The translations under genes and the position numbers were made by a program. The notes under the pieces were generated by a model that was not told the DNA's origin, made no database searches, and worked only from the letters and a program-made list of their open reading frames with translations. From UHGV virus genome UHGV-0150968: a DNA stretch of 10,210 nucleotides; one strand, written 5' to 3'. Positions 4,486 to 10,160 of the stretch are shown here, piece after piece (positions within the stretch are counted from its first letter, which is position 1; every line of letters begins with the position of its first letter). This DNA is from a virus.

Positions 4486-4507
4486 ATGTATAAATAAGGA
4501 GCACACC

Positions 4508-4672
4508 ATGCAATATGCCATTGCAGGGTGGCCTGTTGCTGGCTGCCCTTCCGAATCTTTACTTGAACGAATCACCCGTAAATTACGTGACGGATGGAAA
4601 CGCCTTATCGACATACTTAATCAGCCAGGAGTCCCAAAAAATGGATCAAACACTTATGGCTATCCAGACTAA
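4508..4672 (+). CDS. cIII: CIII, FtsH-inhibitor that stabilises CII, 54 aa
   Basis: Below the ORF-track size cutoff; translated by hand as [54 protein letters not shown]; AAGGAG SD upstream. Confidence 0.9.
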   Translation: MQYAIAGWPVAGCPSESLLERITRKLRDGWKRLIDILNQPGVPKNGSNTYGYPD

Positions 4673-5160: not shown

Positions 5161-5946
5161 ATGAGTACAGCACTCGCAACGCTGGCAGGGAAGCTGGCTG
5201 AACGTGTCGGCATGGATTCTGTCGACCCACAGGAACTGATCACCACTCTTCGCCAGACGGCATTTAAAGGTGATGCCAGCGATGCGCAGTTCATCGCATT
5301 GTTGATCGTCGCCAACCAGTACGGCCTTAATCCGTGGACGAAAGAAATTTACGCCTTCCCTGATAAGCAGAACGGCATCGTTCCGGTGGTGGGCGTTGAT
5401 GGCTGGTCCCGCATCATCAATGAAAACCAGCAGTTTGATGGCATGGACTTTGAGCAGGACAATGAATCATGTACATGCCGGATTTACCGCAAGGACCGTA
5501 ATCATCCGATCTGCGTTACCGAGTGGATGGATGAATGCCGCCGCGAACCATTCAAAACCCGCGAAGGCAGAGAAATCACCGGACCGTGGCAGTCGCATCC
5601 CAAACGGATGTTACGGCATAAAGCCATGATTCAGTGTGCCCGTCTGGCCTTCGGATTTGCTGGTATCTATGACAAGGATGAAGCCGAGCGCATTGTCGAA
5701 AATACTGCATACACTGCAGAACGTCAGCCGGAACGCGACATCACTCCGGTTAACGATGAAACCATGCAGGAGATTAACACTCTGCTGATCGCCCTGGATA
5801 AAACATGGGATGACGACTTATTGCCGCTCTGTTCCCAGATATTTCGCCGCGACATTCGCGCATCGTCAGAACTGACACAGGCCGAAGCAGTGAAAGCTCT
5901 TGGATTCCTGAAACAGAAAGCCACTGAGCAGAAGGTGGCAGCATGA
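5161..5946 (+). CDS. bet: Bet (Red-beta) single-strand annealing protein, 261 aa
   Basis: 261 aa; [37 protein letters not shown]... matches lambda Bet. Confidence 0.95.
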
Positions 5947-6623
5947 CACCGGACATTATCCTGCAGCGTACCGGGATCGACGTGAGAGCTGTCGAACAGG
6001 GGGATGATGCATGGCACAAATTACGGCTCGGCGTCATCACCGCTTCAGAAGTTCACAACGTGATAGCAAAGCCCCGCTCAGGAAAGAAGTGGCCTGACAT
6101 GAAAATGTCCTACTTCCACACCCTGCTGGCTGAGGTTTGCACCGGTGTGGCTCCGGAAGTTAATGCTAAGGCGCTGGCCTGGGGAAAACAGTACGAGAAC
6201 GACGCCAGAACCCTGTTTGAATTCACTTCCGGCGTGAATGTTACTGAATCCCCGATCATCTATCGCGACGAAAGTATGCGCACCGCCTGCTCTCCCGATG
6301 GTTTATGCAGTGACGGCAACGGCCTTGAACTGAAATGCCCGTTTACCTCCCGGGATTTCATGAAATTCCGGCTCGGTGGTTTCGAGGCAATAAAATCGGC
6401 TTACATGGCCCAGGTGCAGTACAGCATGTGGGTGACGCGAAAAGATGCCTGGTACTTTGCCAACTATGACCCGCGTATGAAGCGTGAAGGCCTGCATTAT
6501 GTCGTGATTGAGCGGAATGAAAAGTACATGGCGAGTTTTGACGAGATGGTGCCGGAGTTCATCGAAAAAATGGACGAGGCACTGGCTGAAATTGGTTTTG
6601 TATTTGGGGAGCAATGGCGATGA
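5943..6623 (+). CDS. exo: Exo (Red-alpha) 5'-3' exonuclease, 226 aa
   Basis: 226 aa; ATGA overlap with the bet stop; sequence matches lambda Exo. Confidence 0.95.
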
Positions 6624-6799
6624 CGCATCCTCACGATAATATCCGGGTAGGCGCAATCACTTTCGTCTACTCCGTTACAAAGCGAGGCTGGGTATTTCCC
6701 GGCCTTTCTGTAATCCGAAATCCCCTGAAAGCACAGCGGCTGGCTGAGGAGATAAATAATAAACGGGGGGGGCTGTATGCACAAAGCATCTCCCGTTGA
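6620..6799 (+). CDS. Lambda orf60a-like small protein (59 aa from the ATG overlapping the exo stop; 61 aa from ATG 6614)
   Basis: ATGA coupling to the exo stop; the C-terminal reading frame depends on the G8 homopolymer at 6765-6772. Confidence 0.55.
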
Positions 6800-6968
6800 G
6801 TTAAGAACGAGTATCGAGATGGCACATAGCCTCGCTCAAATTGGAGTCAGGTTTGTGCCAATACCAGTAGAAACAGACGAAGAATTTCACACGTTAGCCG
6901 CATCCCTTTCACAAAAGCTGGAAATGATGGTGGCGAAAGCAGAAGCAGATGAGAGAGACCAGGTATGA
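6777..6968 (+). CDS. Lambda orf63-like protein, 63 aa
   Basis: 63 aa; the G-run 4 nt upstream serves as SD; overlaps the preceding ORF. Confidence 0.7.
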   Translation: MHKASPVELRTSIEMAHSLAQIGVRFVPIPVETDEEFHTLAASLSQKLEMMVAKAEADERDQV

Positions 6969-7048
6969 CAACCACTGAATGCATTTTTCTGGCAGCGGGC
7001 TTCATATTCTGTGTGCTTATGCTTGCCGACATGGGACTTGTTCAATGA
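6965..7048 (+). CDS. Possible 27-aa hydrophobic peptide (MTTTECIFLAAGFIFCVLMLADMGLVQ)
   Basis: ATGA-coupled to the orf63 stop and to the next ORF start; one predicted transmembrane stretch; very short, so speculative. Confidence 0.3.
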   Translation: MTTTECIFLAAGFIFCVLMLADMGLVQ

Positions 7049-7260
7049 CACCTCAGCAGGAAAACGCCCTTCGCAGCATTGCCCGTCAGGCTAATTCTGA
7101 AATCAAAAAAGCCAGACAGCAGTTTCCGGATAAAAACGTCGATGACATTTGCCGTAGCGTACTGAAGAAGCACCGCGAAACGGTAACGCTGATGGGATTC
7201 ACACCGACTCATTTAAGCCTGGCAATCGGCATGTTAAACGGCGTCTTTAAGGAACGATGA
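7045..7260 (+). CDS. Hypothetical 71-aa protein (MTPQQENALRSIARQANSEIKKARQQFPDKNVDD...)
   Basis: ATGA-coupled on both ends; protein-like composition. Confidence 0.5.
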   Translation: MTPQQENALRSIARQANSEIKKARQQFPDKNVDDICRSVLKKHRETVTLMGFTPTHLSLAIGMLNGVFKER

Positions 7261-7281
7261 ACATGAAAAGCAAAATCATCA

Positions 7282-7306
7282 GGGAGCTACAGGCTCCTTT
7301 TTTATT
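7282..7306 (+). terminator. Hairpin (GGGAGC-TACAG-GCTCC) followed by TTTTTTATT
   Basis: Seen in the sequence; lies inside a possible 31-aa ORF (7257-7352), which I therefore do not call as a gene. Confidence 0.45.
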
Positions 7307-7358
7307 ATTCGCATTCACCCTCAAGCGTATTAACCAACAATTCAGGGATTAATGAAAG

Positions 7359-7580
7359 ATGGCAGACATCATTGATTCAGCATCAGAAATTGAAGAATTA
7401 CAGCGCAACACAGCAATAAAAATGCGCCGCCTGAACCACCAGGCTATATCTGCCACTCATTGTTGTGAGTGTGGCGATCCCATAGATGAGCGAAGACGCC
7501 TGGCCGTTCAGGGTTGTCGGACTTGTGCAAGTTGCCAGGAAGATCTGGAGCTTATCAGTAAACAGAGAGGTTCGAAGTGA
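7359..7580 (+). CDS. TraR/DksA-family C4 zinc-finger protein, 73 aa (lambda orf73-like)
   Basis: CxxC...CxxC pattern (HCCECGD ... GCRTCASC) with about 17-residue spacing, typical of the TraR/DksA C-terminal zinc finger; stop overlaps the ea22 GTG start. Confidence 0.75.
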   Translation: MADIIDSASEIEELQRNTAIKMRRLNHQAISATHCCECGDPIDERRRLAVQGCRTCASCQEDLELISKQRGSK

Positions 7581-8125
7581 GCGAAATTAACTCTCAGGCA
7601 CTGCGTGAAGCGGCAGAGCAGGCAATGCATGACGACTGGGGATTTGACGCAGACCTTTTCCATGAATTGGTAACACCATCGATTGTGCTGGAACTGCTGG
7701 ATGAACGGGAAAGAAACCAGCAATACATCAAACGCCGCGACCAGGAGAACGAGGATATTGCGCTAACAGTAGGGAAACTGCGTGTTGAGCTTGAAACAGC
7801 AAAATCAAAACTCAACGAGCAGCGTGAGTATTACGAAGGTGTTATCTCGGATGGGAGTAAGCGTATTGCTAAACTGGAAAGCAACGAAGTCCGTGAAGAC
7901 GGAAACCAGTTTCTTGTTGTTCGCCATCCTGGGAAGACTCCTGTTATCAAGCACTGCACTGGTGACCTGGAAGAGTTTCTGCGGCAGTTAATCGAACAAG
8001 ACCCGTTAGTAACTATCGACATCATTACGCATCGCTATTACGGGGTTGGAGGTCAATGGGTTCAGGATGCAGGTGAGTATCTGCATATGATGTCTGACGC
8101 TGGCATTCGCATCAAAGGAGAGTGA
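7577..8125 (+). CDS. ea22: Ea22 protein, 182 aa, GTG start
   Basis: 182 aa from GTG, matching lambda Ea22 length; central coiled-coil-like region. Confidence 0.85.
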   Translation: MSEINSQALREAAEQAMHDDWGFDADLFHELVTPSIVLELLDERERNQQYIKRRDQENEDIALTVGKLRVELETAKSKLNEQREYYEGVISDGSKRIAKLESNEVREDGNQFLVVRHPGKTPVIKHCTGDLEEFLRQLIEQDPLVTIDIITHRYYGVGGQWVQDAGEYLHMMSDAGIRIKGE

Positions 8126-8316
8126 GATCGGTTTTGTAAAAGATAACGCTTGTGAAAATGCTGAATTTCGCGTCGTCTTCACAGCGATGCCAGAGTCTGT
8201 AGTGTCAGATGATGACCGTACTCAAACATCGGGTTGAGTATTATCTTACTGTTTCTTTACATAAACATTGCTGATACCGTTTAGCTGAAACGACATACAT
8301 TGCAAGGAGTTTATAA

Positions 8317-8598
8317 ATGAGTATCAATGAGTTAGAGTCTGAGCAAAAAGATTGGGCGTTATCAATGTTGTGCAGATCCGGTGTCTTGTCTCCATGCAGA
8401 CATCACGAAGGTGTTTATGTAGATGAAGGTATAGATATAGAGTCGGCATACAAATATTCCATGAAGGTTTATAAGTCTAATGAAGACAAATCCCCATTCT
8501 GCAATGTGCGAGAAATGACTGATACCGTGCAAAATTATTATCACGAGTACGGTGGAAACGATACTTGCCCTCTCTGTACAAAACATATAGATGATTAA
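8317..8598 (+). CDS. ea8.5: Ea8.5 protein, 93 aa
   Basis: 93 aa; AAGGAG SD; matches lambda Ea8.5 length and sequence from memory. Confidence 0.85.
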   Translation: MSINELESEQKDWALSMLCRSGVLSPCRHHEGVYVDEGIDIESAYKYSMKVYKSNEDKSPFCNVREMTDTVQNYYHEYGGNDTCPLCTKHIDD

Positions 8599-8615
8599 AC
8601 CCAATATTACATAAC

Positions 8616-8647
8616 AATCCTCGCACTCGCGGGGATTTATTTTATCT
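8616..8647 (+). terminator. GC-rich hairpin (AATCCTCGC-ACTC-GCGGGGATT) followed by TATTTTAT, downstream of ea8.5
   Basis: Seen in the sequence. Confidence 0.45.
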
Positions 8648-8686
8648 GAACTCGCTACGGCGGGTTTTGTTTTATGGAGATGATAA

Positions 8687-8854
8687 ATGCACTTCCGAGT
8701 CACAGGTGAATGGAATGGAGAGCCATTCAACAGGGTTATCGAAGCAGAGAACATCAACGACTGCTATAACCACTGGATGATATGGGCGCAGATAGCGCAT
8801 GCAGACGTAACCAATATTCGAATTGAAGAACTGAAAGAACACCAAGCCGCCTGA
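8687..8854 (+). CDS. Hypothetical 55-aa protein between ea8.5 and xis (MHFRVTGEWNGEPFNRVIEAENINDCYNHWMIWAQIAHADVTNIRIEELKEHQAA)
   Basis: GGAG SD 8 nt upstream; position corresponds to an unnamed lambda ORF at about 29118-29285 by recollection; below the ORF-track cutoff, translated by hand. Confidence 0.55.
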   Translation: MHFRVTGEWNGEPFNRVIEAENINDCYNHWMIWAQIAHADVTNIRIEELKEHQAA

Positions 8855-8866
8855 TGGCGGTTTTTT
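8846..8866 (+). terminator. Hairpin GCCGCC-TGAT-GGCGG followed by TTTTTT, with the 55-aa ORF stop codon in the loop
   Basis: Seen in the sequence. Confidence 0.5.
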
Positions 8867-8867
8867 C

Positions 8868-8906
8868 TTGCGTGTAATTGCGGAGACTTTGCGATGTACT
8901 TGACAC
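8868..8906 (+). promoter_or_regulatory. pI (int promoter) with CII recognition repeat TTGC-N6-TTGC at 8868-8881
   Basis: TTGCGTGTAATTGC seen directly. Established lambda biology: the CII-dependent pI starts inside xis, so its transcript makes Int but not Xis. The -10 and start-site positions are inferred. Confidence 0.55.
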
Positions 8907-9112
8907 TTCAGGAGTGGAACGCTCGCCAGCGACGCCCAAGAAGCCTTGAAACAGTTCGTCGATGGGTGCGCGAATGCAGGATATTCCCTCCTCCGGTTAA
9001 GGATGGAAGAGAATATCTGTTCCACGAATCAGCGGTAAAGGTTGACTTAAATCGACCAGTAACAGGTAGCCTTTTGAAGAGGATCAGAAATGGGAAGAAG
9101 GCGAAGTCATGA
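8894..9112 (+). CDS. xis: Excisionase Xis, 72 aa
   Basis: MYLTLQEWNARQRRPRSLETVRRWVRECRIFPPPVKDGREYLFHESAVKVDLNRPVTGSLLKRIRNGKKAKS matches lambda Xis; 23-bp overlap with int. Confidence 0.95.
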   Translation: MYLTLQEWNARQRRPRSLETVRRWVRECRIFPPPVKDGREYLFHESAVKVDLNRPVTGSLLKRIRNGKKAKS

Positions 9113-10160
9113 GCGCCGGGATTTACCCCCTAACCTTTATATAAGAAACAATGGATATTACTGCTACAGGGACCCAAGGACGGGTAAAGAGTTTGGATTA
9201 GGCAGAGACAGGCGAATCGCAATCACTGAAGCTATACAGGCCAACATTGAGTTATTTTCAGGACACAAACACAAGCCTCTGACAGCGAGAATCAACAGTG
9301 ATAATTCCGTTACGTTACATTCATGGCTTGATCGCTACGAAAAAATCCTGGCCAGCAGAGGAATCAAACAGAAGACACTCATAAATTACATGAGCAAAAT
9401 TAAAGCAATAAGGAGGGGTCTGCCTGATGCTCCACTTGAAGACATCACCACAAAAGAAATTGCGGCAATGCTCAATGGATACATAAACGAGGGCAAGGCG
9501 GCGTCAGCCAAGTTAATCAGATCAACACTGAGCGATGCATTCCGAGAGGCAATAGCTGAAGGCCATATAACAACAAACCCTGTCGCTGCCACTCGCGCAG
9601 CAAAATCAGAGGTAAGGAGATCAAGACTTACGGCTGACGAATACCTGAAAATTTATCAAGCAGCAGAATCATCACCATGTTGGCTCAGACTTGCAATGGA
9701 ACTGGCTGTTGTTACCGGGCAACGAGTTGGTGATTTATGCGAAATGAAGTGGTCTGATATCGTAGATGGATATCTTTATGTCGAGCAAAGCAAAACAGGC
9801 GTAAAAATTGCCATCCCAACAGCATTGCATGTTGATGCTCTCGGAATATCAATGAAGGAAACACTTGATAAATGCAAAGAGATTCTTGGCGGAGAAACCA
9901 TAATTGCATCTACTCGTCGCGAACCGCTTTCATCCGGCACAGTATCAAGGTATTTTATGCGCGCACGAAAAGCATCAGGTCTTTCCTTCGAAGGGGATCC
10001 GCCTACCTTTCACGAGTTGCGCAGTTTGTCTGCAAGACTCTATGAGAAGCAGATAAGCGATAAGTTTGCTCAACATCTTCTCGGGCATAAGTCGGACACC
10101 ATGGCATCACAGTATCGTGATGACAGAGGCAGGGAGTGGGACAAAATTGAAATCAAATAA
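9090..10160 (+). CDS. int: Tyrosine integrase Int, 356 aa
   Basis: 356 aa; sequence matches lambda Int from memory, including the C-terminal catalytic region (...HLLGHKSDTMASQYRDDRGREWDKIEIK). Confidence 0.97.
   Translation: MGRRRSHERRDLPPNLYIRNNGYYCYRDPRTGKEFGLGRDRRIAITEAIQANIELFSGHKHKPLTARINSDNSVTLHSWLDRYEKILASRGIKQKTLINYMSKIKAIRRGLPDAPLEDITTKEIAAMLNGYINEGKAASAKLIRSTLSDAFREAIAEGHITTNPVAATRAAKSEVRRSRLTADEYLKIYQAAESSPCWLRLAMELAVVTGQRVGDLCEMKWSDIVDGYLYVEQSKTGVKIAIPTALHVDALGISMKETLDKCKEILGGETIIASTRREPLSSGTVSRYFMRARKASGLSFEGDPPTFHELRSLSARLYEKQISDKFAQHLLGHKSDTMASQYRDDRGREWDKIEIK

Follow-up and report, generated by a model that had tools for sequence, protein, structure and literature searches.

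A known lambda-type exo-xis block with an unannotated 27-codon reading frame that appears to evolve like a gene

The exo-xis DNA of phage lambda (NC_001416, about 29847-31351) is also carried by most Stx phages, and lambda ribosome profiling has reportedly confirmed orf60a, orf63, orf61, orf73, ea22 and a 31-aa ORF within it (PMC8614690). Its product Orf73 binds the secondary channel of RNA polymerase without ppGpp, sharing this site with DksA and TraR, and its IC50 for the inhibition of rrnB P1 is TraR-like, about 50 nM; rRNA and ribosomal protein promoters are shut down, the host grows more slowly, and the phage yield increases 3-4 fold (PMC9239242). Both F-plasmid TraR and lambda Orf73 are about 73 aa long and combine an N-terminal DxxDxA motif with a C4 zinc ribbon and a C-terminal helix; the motif is needed for activity, and D3/D6 substitution variants of lambda Orf73 lose activity (PMC9239242). 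Nevertheless, Orf73 resembles F TraR only weakly in sequence (E about 1e-4) and, unlike TraR, is described as giving no increase in transcription at the F-element promoters that TraR activates (PMC9239242). A second gene of the block, orf61, is annotated as 93 aa in the Stx phages 933W (L0070) and Phi24B (vb_24B_7c), starting at an ATG that corresponds to position 6979 of the sequence described below, and is frameshift-truncated to 61 aa in laboratory lambda. Two terminator-like hairpins have been predicted in the lambda block, t1, with its sequence given, and t2, downstream of which orf73 and ea22 mRNA was found to be lower (Bloch et al. 2014, PMC4195576). Finally, short ORFs are known to overlap intrinsic terminators such as tR2, where the proximity of the ribosome suppresses termination (PMC4824070).

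We compared with these systems a stretch of 10,210 nucleotides from a viral genome (UHGV-0150968; hereafter the window). Positions 6500-7700 of the window match lambda 30272-31471 (complement) at 98.2% DNA identity over 1.2 kb and phage PhiR11_1 at 99.9%, both with the same gene order, and the series exo-orf60a-orf63-orf61-orf73-ea22 on the pL strand is syntenic with lambda at high identity, including the hairpins t1 and t2. Family matches were obtained for orf60a, orf63, orf73, ea22 and ea8.5. Judged by its sequence, the locus is the known exo-xis block of a lambda-type prophage, part of its leftward early (pL) operon, and we are highly confident in the reading as a whole, namely an exo-xis block with tightly packed small genes, Orf73, the ORF called p27 here, a re-delimited orf61 and a terminator. 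Of 5426 complete E. coli genomes, 3317 (~60%) carry the region; the arrangement is conserved and not a chance pattern. A scan of genome contigs for diverged homologues returned only lambda contamination in unrelated taxa and two Escherichia loci, and a search of Rfam gave no match over the span of the small genes, the cIII thermoregulator upstream being the only match. The ORFs named in an earlier sequence-only reading of this DNA (orf60a-like, orf63, a 27-aa, a 71-aa and a 73-aa ORF, and ea22) were all found on the + strand. The features, all on the + strand, are the following, with the evidence for each in brackets.

5943-5946, ATGA overlap of bet and exo (junction sequence)
5943..6623, exo, lambda exonuclease, 226 aa (ORF list; annotated exo at the homologous position in lambda and PhiR11_1)
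6620-6623, ATGA overlap of exo and orf60a (junction sequence)
6620..6799, orf60a, DUF1317, with an alternative ATG at 6614 (PF07026, lambda annotation)
6684..6706, strong RNA hairpin within orf60a, the predicted t1 (fold -19.6 kcal/mol, z=-3.4)
6777-6799, 23-nt overlap of orf60a and orf63 (ORF coordinates)
6777..6968, orf63, DUF1382, 63 aa (PF07131, PDB 8dsb, lambda annotation)
6965-6968, ATGA overlap of orf63 and the 27-aa ORF (junction sequence)
6965..7048, p27, hydrophobic ORF of 27 codons, MTTTECIFLAAGFIFCVLMLADMGLVQ, lambda 30928-31008, complement (substitution pattern, module boundaries)
7045-7048, ATGA overlap of the 27-aa and 71-aa ORFs (junction sequence)
7045..7260, orf61, 71 aa (substitution pattern, form in locus L004, RefSeq annotation, AlphaFold2)
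7257..7352, p31, ORF of 31 codons spanning t2 (ORF list; annotated in PhiR11_1)
7281..7309, t2, predicted intrinsic terminator between orf61 and orf73 (terminator scan)
7359..7580, orf73, TraR-family C4 zinc-finger protein, 73 aa (PF01258, phrog_54, TraR structures, lambda Orf73)
7577-7580, GTGA overlap of orf73 and ea22 (junction sequence)
7577..8125, ea22, GTG start, 182 aa (PF13935 at E=1e-28, lambda annotation, junction sequence)

Within this block, the 73-aa product had been read from the sequence as a TraR/DksA-family zinc finger, and several lines of evidence bear this out. It matches PF01258 with 35.8 bits (E=7.7e-9), above the cut-off of 24.9, as well as phrog_54 ("DksA-like zinc-finger protein", E=2e-25) and the structures of TraR (5w1s, 6n57) and YbiI (2kgo), with whose cysteines its own C4 pattern aligns (C35-x2-C38-x17-C56-x2-C59, that is, Cx2C-x17-Cx2C). 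The NCBIfam model of the TraR subfamily, TIGR02419, aligns over the full length and scores 55.7 bits, just under its cut-off of 59.7 (E=5.6e-15). The N-terminal DxxDxA motif is present as D3-I-I-D6-S-A8, and 35 of 66 site-alleles in 224 loci are synonymous (P<1e-5). The protein is identical to lambda Orf73 in 72 of 73 residues, the sole difference being alanine for valine at residue 49, and the reprogramming of host transcription that the sequence-only reading had proposed has been shown experimentally for the lambda protein (PMC9239242). Orf73 would be the functional centrepiece of the block: occupancy of the RNA polymerase secondary channel would turn off rRNA and ribosomal protein promoters, slow growth and yield more phage. 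Both the block and its zinc-finger protein are already known, and the finding as first stated adds nothing new; the checks proposed with it are likewise already in the literature, as lambda ribosome profiling, modelled structures of the small proteins and rRNA-promoter inhibition assays in vitro (PMC8614690, PMC9239242).

The two genes that follow exo are also recognizable members of described families. Orf60a matches PF07026 above its gathering score (E=3e-34, 117 bits), and 20 of its 39 site-alleles are synonymous (P=0.001). Its start likely lies at 6620, as in the lambda annotation, since the alternative ATG at 6614 is only 2 nt downstream of the GGGGAG Shine-Dalgarno sequence. The last approximately 10 residues of Orf60a are unlike those of lambda because of a longer G-run in the window (G8, with 2 additional nt at 6765-6766); this frameshifted tail explains why the match covers positions 1-56 of the 60 in the profile, and PGAP flags the same allele as "frameshifted." Orf63 matches PF07131 above its gathering score (E=3e-31, 107.8 bits) and PDB 8dsb (E=2e-33).

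The new point, a modest refinement of annotation, concerns the 27-codon ORF p27, which by its substitution pattern appears to evolve like a real gene. Across 217 related loci, 12 of 19 site-alleles are synonymous where 5.2 would be expected (P=0.0004), in a test limited to 19 site-alleles of sequences that are closely related (95-100% identity), and the changes are distributed 5/2/12 over the three codon positions. The peptide is identical in 204 of the 217 loci, which span 17 DNA haplotypes, and each of the 175 phage records with the ORF has it at full length, with at least 92.6% identity; a tblastn search with p27 returned no match below that value. With a GRAVY of 1.62 and an average of 2.8 over residues 6-21, the peptide contains a hydrophobic stretch of sufficient length to form a membrane helix. 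The boundaries of the ORF also coincide with those of exchanged modules: in nine loci, orf63 is swapped as an exact module (6780-6964) for a Dam methyltransferase gene, and in these variants homology breaks at 6779 and resumes exactly at the p27 ATG at 6965, so that the ATGA, together with a GGGAGG Shine-Dalgarno sequence, is kept behind a different upstream gene. Taken together, these patterns make p27 most likely a real small membrane protein; with moderate confidence, we take it to be genuinely translated in lambda and the Shiga-toxin phages and to have been overlooked by annotators. It is missing from the annotation of every record inspected, its peptide string has no match in the searchable literature, and the extra translated lambda peptides given in PMC8614690, which cites lambda ribosome profiling, are of 7 and 31 aa, not 27. 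The sequence-only reading had called both the 27-aa and the 71-aa ORF rarely annotated, which holds for the former, and its view of the 27-aa ORF as a separate, coupled gene gains support from the comparative analysis. The 71-aa ORF, on the other hand, is far from obscure, being the known gene orf61 that RefSeq annotates routinely (WP_000188870.1 in E. coli).

The delimitation of orf61 bears directly on p27, since an ATG at 6979 opens a 93-aa ORF, and it could be argued that there is no 27-aa gene, positions 6979-7044 instead supplying the first 22 residues of an Orf61 of 93 aa. This is how the gene is read in 933W (L0070), Phi24B (vb_24B_7c) and PhiR11_1, this is the version used in published modelling and deletion studies, and phrog_303 covers all 93 residues. 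However, in the frame of the putative extension only 3 of 19 site-alleles are synonymous, and 0 of 11 when alleles found in at least two loci are considered, with changes distributed 12/5/2 over the codon positions and 11 variants of the extension peptide, among them G7R (38 loci) and H18Y (14 loci). The T at 6976 of the window, moreover, creates a stop that closes the start frame annotated for lambda orf61 and is silent in p27. The 71-aa frame itself behaves as coding (23 of 39 site-alleles synonymous, P=1e-5), and in the locus L004 the 71-aa orf61 occurs alone, without p27 and without upstream homology, behind an unrelated gene and with a GAGG Shine-Dalgarno sequence of its own. PGAP chooses the 71-aa start, AlphaFold2 predicts a three-helix fold for the 71-aa protein without the extension MHFSGSGLHILCAYACRHGTCS (pLDDT 87.7, pTM 0.72), and residues 1-23 of the long form were modelled inconsistently (Donaldson et al.). 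One locus, L095, points the other way: a 14-nt deletion destroys p27 and joins the coupled ATG with the orf61 frame, so that an ATGA-coupled ATG with a GGAGG Shine-Dalgarno sequence leads straight into the 93-aa frame; this locus therefore does without p27 and shows that a long Orf61 is possible. We regard the 93-aa reading as unlikely, and the true orf61 product, judged from the substitution data, most likely starts at ATG 7045. The C-terminal 71 residues of the Stx-phage proteins are the same protein (90-100% identity), and their first 22 annotated residues are apparently noncoding in that frame, the DNA there probably encoding p27 in another. In comparison with laboratory lambda, in which an extra A in the A-run at 7104-7109 truncates the gene, the window orf61 is an intact 71 aa, and this extra A is limited to lambda-derived sequences.

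In a protein search, the family of orf61 was confined to E. coli prophages. Some RefSeq records call the 71-aa protein "ZapA," a name we rejected: PF05164 scores 16.1 bits, below the cut-off of 23.8, NCBIfam gives no match, and no ZapA is among the Foldseek matches in the PDB (all E>=2). A homeodomain-like fold has been proposed for Orf61 (PMC8614690); the three-helix bundle is predicted confidently, and Foldseek against the PDB lists no homeodomain and nothing with E<2. A sequence search of the PDB returned a weak similarity to a single ankyrin-repeat-like motif (E=3e-4), with no stretch passing on its own.

Turning to how these genes might be translated, the sequence-only reading had every start from exo to ea22 overlapping the previous stop. 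Four-base ATGA or GTGA overlaps are indeed found at exo/orf60a, orf63/27-aa, 27-aa/71-aa and orf73/ea22, while orf60a and orf63 overlap by 23 nt, not 4, and the chain is broken between orf61 (end at 7260) and orf73 (start at 7359) by a gap of 98 nt containing the predicted intrinsic terminator and the 31-codon ORF. Overlapping stop and start codons are common in phage operons and are no proof of reinitiation. The tight packing with ATGA and GTGA junctions is consistent with translational coupling, in which, as the anatomy of most junctions suggests, ribosomes ending one gene could reinitiate on the next; p27 and orf61, with weak or misplaced Shine-Dalgarno sequences in the window context, would probably depend on it. 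Alternatively, the overlaps might reflect mere genome compaction, each small gene being translated from its own ribosome-binding site. Recognizable Shine-Dalgarno sequences do precede orf60a (GGGGAG), orf63 (a G-run), orf73 (AGGGA) and ea22 (GAGAGG, 5-6 nt upstream of the GTG), and phage annotators have placed ribosome-binding sites at these genes. Such independence is improbable, though: p27 has no correctly spaced Shine-Dalgarno sequence in the lambda and Stx contexts (AGGT abuts the ATG, or CCCGGC is found), and its ATGA junction with orf63 is kept even where the methyltransferase gene replaces the upstream gene; at the p27/orf61 junction, a single one of the first 91 loci has GTGA and the others have ATGA. 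Least probable among the alternatives is that p27 is translated merely as a relay passing ribosomes from orf63 to orf61, its peptide having no function: ATGA at both ends, the weak Shine-Dalgarno sequence before orf61 in the window context, the dispensability of p27 in L004, where orf61 has its own Shine-Dalgarno sequence, and its destruction in L095 would all fit, but a pure relay would leave the amino acid sequence unconstrained, whereas the near-invariance of the peptide across haplotypes, the excess of synonymous changes and the full-length, closely similar copies in every phage record indicate constraint.

If p27 is real, the exo-xis DNA would hold one more small gene than any annotation gives it, and orf61 would have been wrongly delimited in the literature, both as the 61-aa gene of lambda and as the 93-aa gene of the Stx phages; on the same evolutionary evidence, its start would lie 22 codons downstream of the one used in functional and modelling papers. 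The published phenotypes of orf61 deletions (lysis-lysogeny bias, impaired Phi24B adsorption) may then stem in part or entirely from the loss of p27, since little or nothing of it is left in those deletions. This is relevant to how existing orf61 mutants are read in EHEC phage biology and to the small-protein annotation of a model phage.

Regarding transcription, induction or infection would lead to N-antiterminated pL transcription through bet and exo and then through the run of small genes orf60a, orf63, p27, orf61, p31, orf73 and ea22. Of the two hairpins in this run, the one in orf60a is probably lambda tL3, described as the "native terminator after exo" on pKD46 (PMC8402550); the element at 7281 was ruled out as tL3, since the pKD46 descriptions put tL3 directly after exo, which fits 6684-6706. 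The element at 7281, t2, has an 8-bp stem, a 3-nt loop and a T-run, is only modestly stable (-10.2 kcal/mol, z=-1.9) and has a 3' stem half that is invariant in 224 loci. On transcripts without N modification, t2 would cut the expression of orf73 and ea22. Like the short ORFs at tR2, p31 runs through the terminator hairpin, and its TAA lies 6 nt upstream of the ATG of orf73. At its other end, the start codon overlaps the stop of orf61, as ATGA or, in 94 of 207 loci, as GTGA, and a second ATG lies at 7263, 9 nt after AAGGA. It is tempting to speculate that translation of p31 across t2 may counter termination and hand ribosomes to orf73. The p31 peptide carries no selection signal, and in the phage N antitermination already overrides terminators. 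We rejected p31 as a conserved peptide gene: it is open and 31 aa long in 205 of 207 loci, and its substitutions show no coding-type bias (10 of 28 synonymous, P=0.11), a pattern indistinguishable from that of noncoding DNA. The sequence-only reading had left p31 out of its gene chain. A translated 31-aa ORF is reported in this region of lambda (PMC8614690), and the length of p31 matches that of "orf2313", reported from lambda ribosome profiling.

On the + strand, the ORF list places bet and exo, then several small ORFs followed by ea22, ea8.5, xis and int, at 5161-10160; the stretch from exo to ea22 is, by its sequence, the "exo-xis region" of a lambda-type pL early operon. When phage genomes were searched by megablast with 6500-7700, 190 records matched; Escherichia phage PhiR11_1 is 99.9% identical and phage lambda (NC_001416/J02459, 30272-31471, complement strand) 98.2%, and the annotation of these two phages supplied the names exo, orf60a, orf63, orf61, TraR/YbiI-family protein and ea22. 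Of 5426 complete E. coli genomes, 3317 carry the 426-bp core at 6940-7365. The sequence-only reading of the exo-to-ea22 stretch thus correctly recognises a region that was already known and had been studied by experiment: the exo-xis region already has a substantial literature, in which transcription of the block from pL early after induction has been shown, as has, reportedly by ribosome profiling, translation of the five named genes orf60a, orf63, orf61, orf73 and ea22. As expected for a pL operon, the Rfam element Lambda_thermo (cIII thermoregulator) lies at 4495-4553 (88.5 bits). Matches to lambda imm21 and DE3 begin only at ~1398; the left end (1-1398) aligns with neither and thus belongs to another immunity or early-region module. 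Directly 3' of ea8.5, two tandem terminator-like hairpins with T-runs occupy 8616-8667 (combined fold -24.7 kcal/mol, z=-4.7).

All ORFs named in that reading are present in the ORF list. Its claim that every start overlaps the previous stop stood for exo/orf60a, orf63/27-aa, 27-aa/71-aa and orf73/ea22, but not for orf60a/orf63, where the overlap is 23 nt and not 4, or for 71-aa/orf73, where 98 nt separate the end of the 71-aa ORF (7260) from the start of the zinc-finger gene (7359).

Gene junctions and the hairpin between bet and ea22
5943-5946, + strand, ATGA overlap of bet and exo
6620-6623, + strand, ATGA overlap of exo and orf60a
6965-6968, + strand, ATGA overlap of orf63 and the 27-aa ORF (p27)
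7045-7048, + strand, ATGA overlap of the 27-aa and 71-aa ORFs
7281-7309, + strand, hairpin and T-run (t2), from terminator scan and fold
7577-7580, + strand, GTGA overlap of orf73 and ea22

For orf60a, the spacing of a GGGGAG Shine-Dalgarno suits the ATG at 6620, not 6614. What the present analysis establishes is junction anatomy, sequence identity, coding signatures and module boundaries; judging from the anatomy, ribosomes may pass from gene to gene by translational coupling at the ATGA/GTGA junctions, which would be needed most for p27 and orf61 because both have a poor Shine-Dalgarno here.

The 27-aa ORF had been described as hydrophobic and rarely annotated. It is indeed strongly hydrophobic (GRAVY 1.62), consistent with a single membrane helix and hence a putative membrane location, and it was unannotated in every record inspected, including those of lambda, PhiR11_1, Stx phage, phage P27 and RefSeq; nor did we find any mention of it in the searchable literature. 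We gathered 224 homologous loci for a substitution test, in which each polymorphic site-allele was counted once per ORF as synonymous or not, against a null matched for transition/transversion. The p27 frame gave 12/19 synonymous (5.2 expected, P=0.0004), with polymorphism by codon position of 5/2/12, while the frame of the 93-aa extension, which is that of the lambda orf61 start, gave 3/19 (P=0.96); the positive controls were orf61 (71 aa; 23/39, P=1e-5), orf73 (35/66, P<1e-5) and orf60a (20/39, P=0.001). Among alleles present in at least two loci, 9/11 were synonymous in the p27 frame versus 0/11 in the extension frame. Across 17 DNA haplotypes, 204 of 217 loci encode the same p27 peptide; the alternative-frame peptide comes in 11 variants, of which several are common. 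T6976 of the window is silent in p27 but creates a stop codon in the frame in which annotated lambda orf61 starts. By tblastn, each of the 175 phage records that carry p27 has it at full length.

Module boundaries agree with p27 as a gene and with an orf61 start at 7045. In nine loci (L012, L023, L033, L058, L066, L072, L077, L086 and L089; segment homologous to 6780-6964), a Dam (phage N-6-adenine) methyltransferase gene replaces orf63 exactly, from the one start codon to the next, and neatly illustrates mosaicism at gene boundaries: homology breaks at 6779 and restarts precisely at 6965, the p27 ATG, which once more forms an ATGA with the stop of the gene before it and is preceded by a GGGAGG Shine-Dalgarno. 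In another locus, L004, one 250-aa gene stands in place of both orf63 and p27, and orf61 retains its ATG (equivalent to 7045) with its own GAGG upstream. Against this, a 14-nt deletion in Escherichia sp. E1V33 (L095, 1435-1811) destroys p27 and puts its coupled ATG in frame with orf61, yielding an ATGA-coupled 93-aa Orf61; this locus has a divergent p31 (32 aa, 7 substitutions; the 31-codon ORF is discussed below), an intact hairpin and no orf73 downstream. Taken on the evolutionary evidence, p27 appears to be a real gene, and this, along with the evidence that orf61 begins at 7045, is what would be new relative to the literature. Since lambda p27 (30928-31008) lies wholly within annotated lambda orf61 (30839-31024), the published orf61 deletions also removed p27, wholly or for the most part.

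The 71-aa ORF (7045-7260) is orf61. Contrary to the suggestion that it is rarely annotated, the 71-aa version starting at 7045 is annotated in RefSeq and phage P27, and Stx phages carry an annotated 93-aa version whose start corresponds to 6979. The A-run at 7104-7109 is one A shorter in the window than in lambda; the extra A occurs only in lambda-derived sequences (17 of the 224 loci), so the 61-aa "orf61" of laboratory lambda is a frameshift-truncated allele, and Donaldson et al. likewise consider lambda Orf61 truncated. A protein search found the family confined to E. coli prophages. AlphaFold2 modelled the 71-aa sequence alone as a confident three-helix bundle (pLDDT 87.7, pTM 0.72), for which Foldseek returned no significant neighbour in the PDB. 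Many copies are called "cell division protein ZapA" in RefSeq, a name that the matches do not support (Pfam ZapA 16.1 bits against a cut-off of 23.8, no structural match). Residues 42-65, with the motif TLMGFTPTHLSLAIGMLNGV, weakly match individual ankyrin repeats and DARPins; the best hit has E=3e-4, and by itself no stretch is significant. The resemblance to the ankyrin consensus is probably coincidental.

The interval between orf61 and orf73 holds p31 (7257-7352), a 31-codon ORF that the earlier reading had missed. Its start codon shares bases with the stop of the 71-aa ORF, and 6 nt separate its TAA from the orf73 ATG. PhiR11_1 has it annotated, and translation of a 31-aa ORF here is reported from lambda ribosome profiling (PMC8614690). 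It is open at 31 codons in 205/207 loci, and the 6-nt spacing to orf73 is kept in 198 of them; the same substitution test detected no coding bias (10/28 synonymous, P=0.11, codon positions 7/11/10). Inside it lies the element predicted as terminator "t2" by Bloch et al., who connected it with reduced orf73/ea22 mRNA levels in lambda (PMC4195576); the 3' half of the hairpin does not vary among the 224 loci. It is tempting to speculate that, if p31 is translated, the act of translation and not the peptide may matter, as it could hand ribosomes to orf73 and could occlude the t2 hairpin, giving t2 and p31 a possible role in tuning expression. A strong hairpin inside orf60a (6684-6706; -19.6 kcal/mol, z=-3.4), the predicted t1 of the same authors, is probably lambda tL3, the terminator kept after exo on pKD46.

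The proposal that the 73-aa ORF encodes a TraR/DksA-like C4 zinc finger was borne out: its product matches PF01258 above threshold, phrog_54 ("DksA-like zinc-finger protein") and the solved TraR and YbiI structures, and it has the DxxDxA motif (D3, D6, A8) and the cysteine pattern Cx2C-x17-Cx2C. It is identical to lambda Orf73 at 72/73 positions (A49 here, V49 in lambda), for which the suggested hijacking of host transcription is already published, as is the proposed check on rRNA promoters: lambda Orf73 competes with DksA for RNA polymerase and, without ppGpp, inhibits rrnB P1 (IC50 ~50 nM) and likewise rpsT P2 (Gopalkrishnan et al. 2022, PMC9239242). In the same study it slowed host growth, D3/D6 substitution variants were assayed in vitro and in lysogens, and the D3A D6A lysogen and the orf73 deletion alike gave phage yields 3-4 fold below wild type.

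Finally, the G-run at 6760-6776, which is the orf63 Shine-Dalgarno and also lies within the 3' end of orf60a, varies in length among phages (G8 in the window, in contrast to GAGGGG in lambda), and many loci carry indels at 6765-6775. They give Orf60a a different C-terminal tail, and the window allele is labelled 'frameshifted' by PGAP. In loci L096-L109, the region with the laboratory-lambda frameshift allele occurs in assemblies labelled Shewanella, Pseudomonas, Bradyrhizobium, Paenibacillus, Kitasatospora, Oceanobacillus and others, some on ~48.4-48.5 kb contigs at low coverage; these are almost certainly contamination of public genomes by lambda control DNA.
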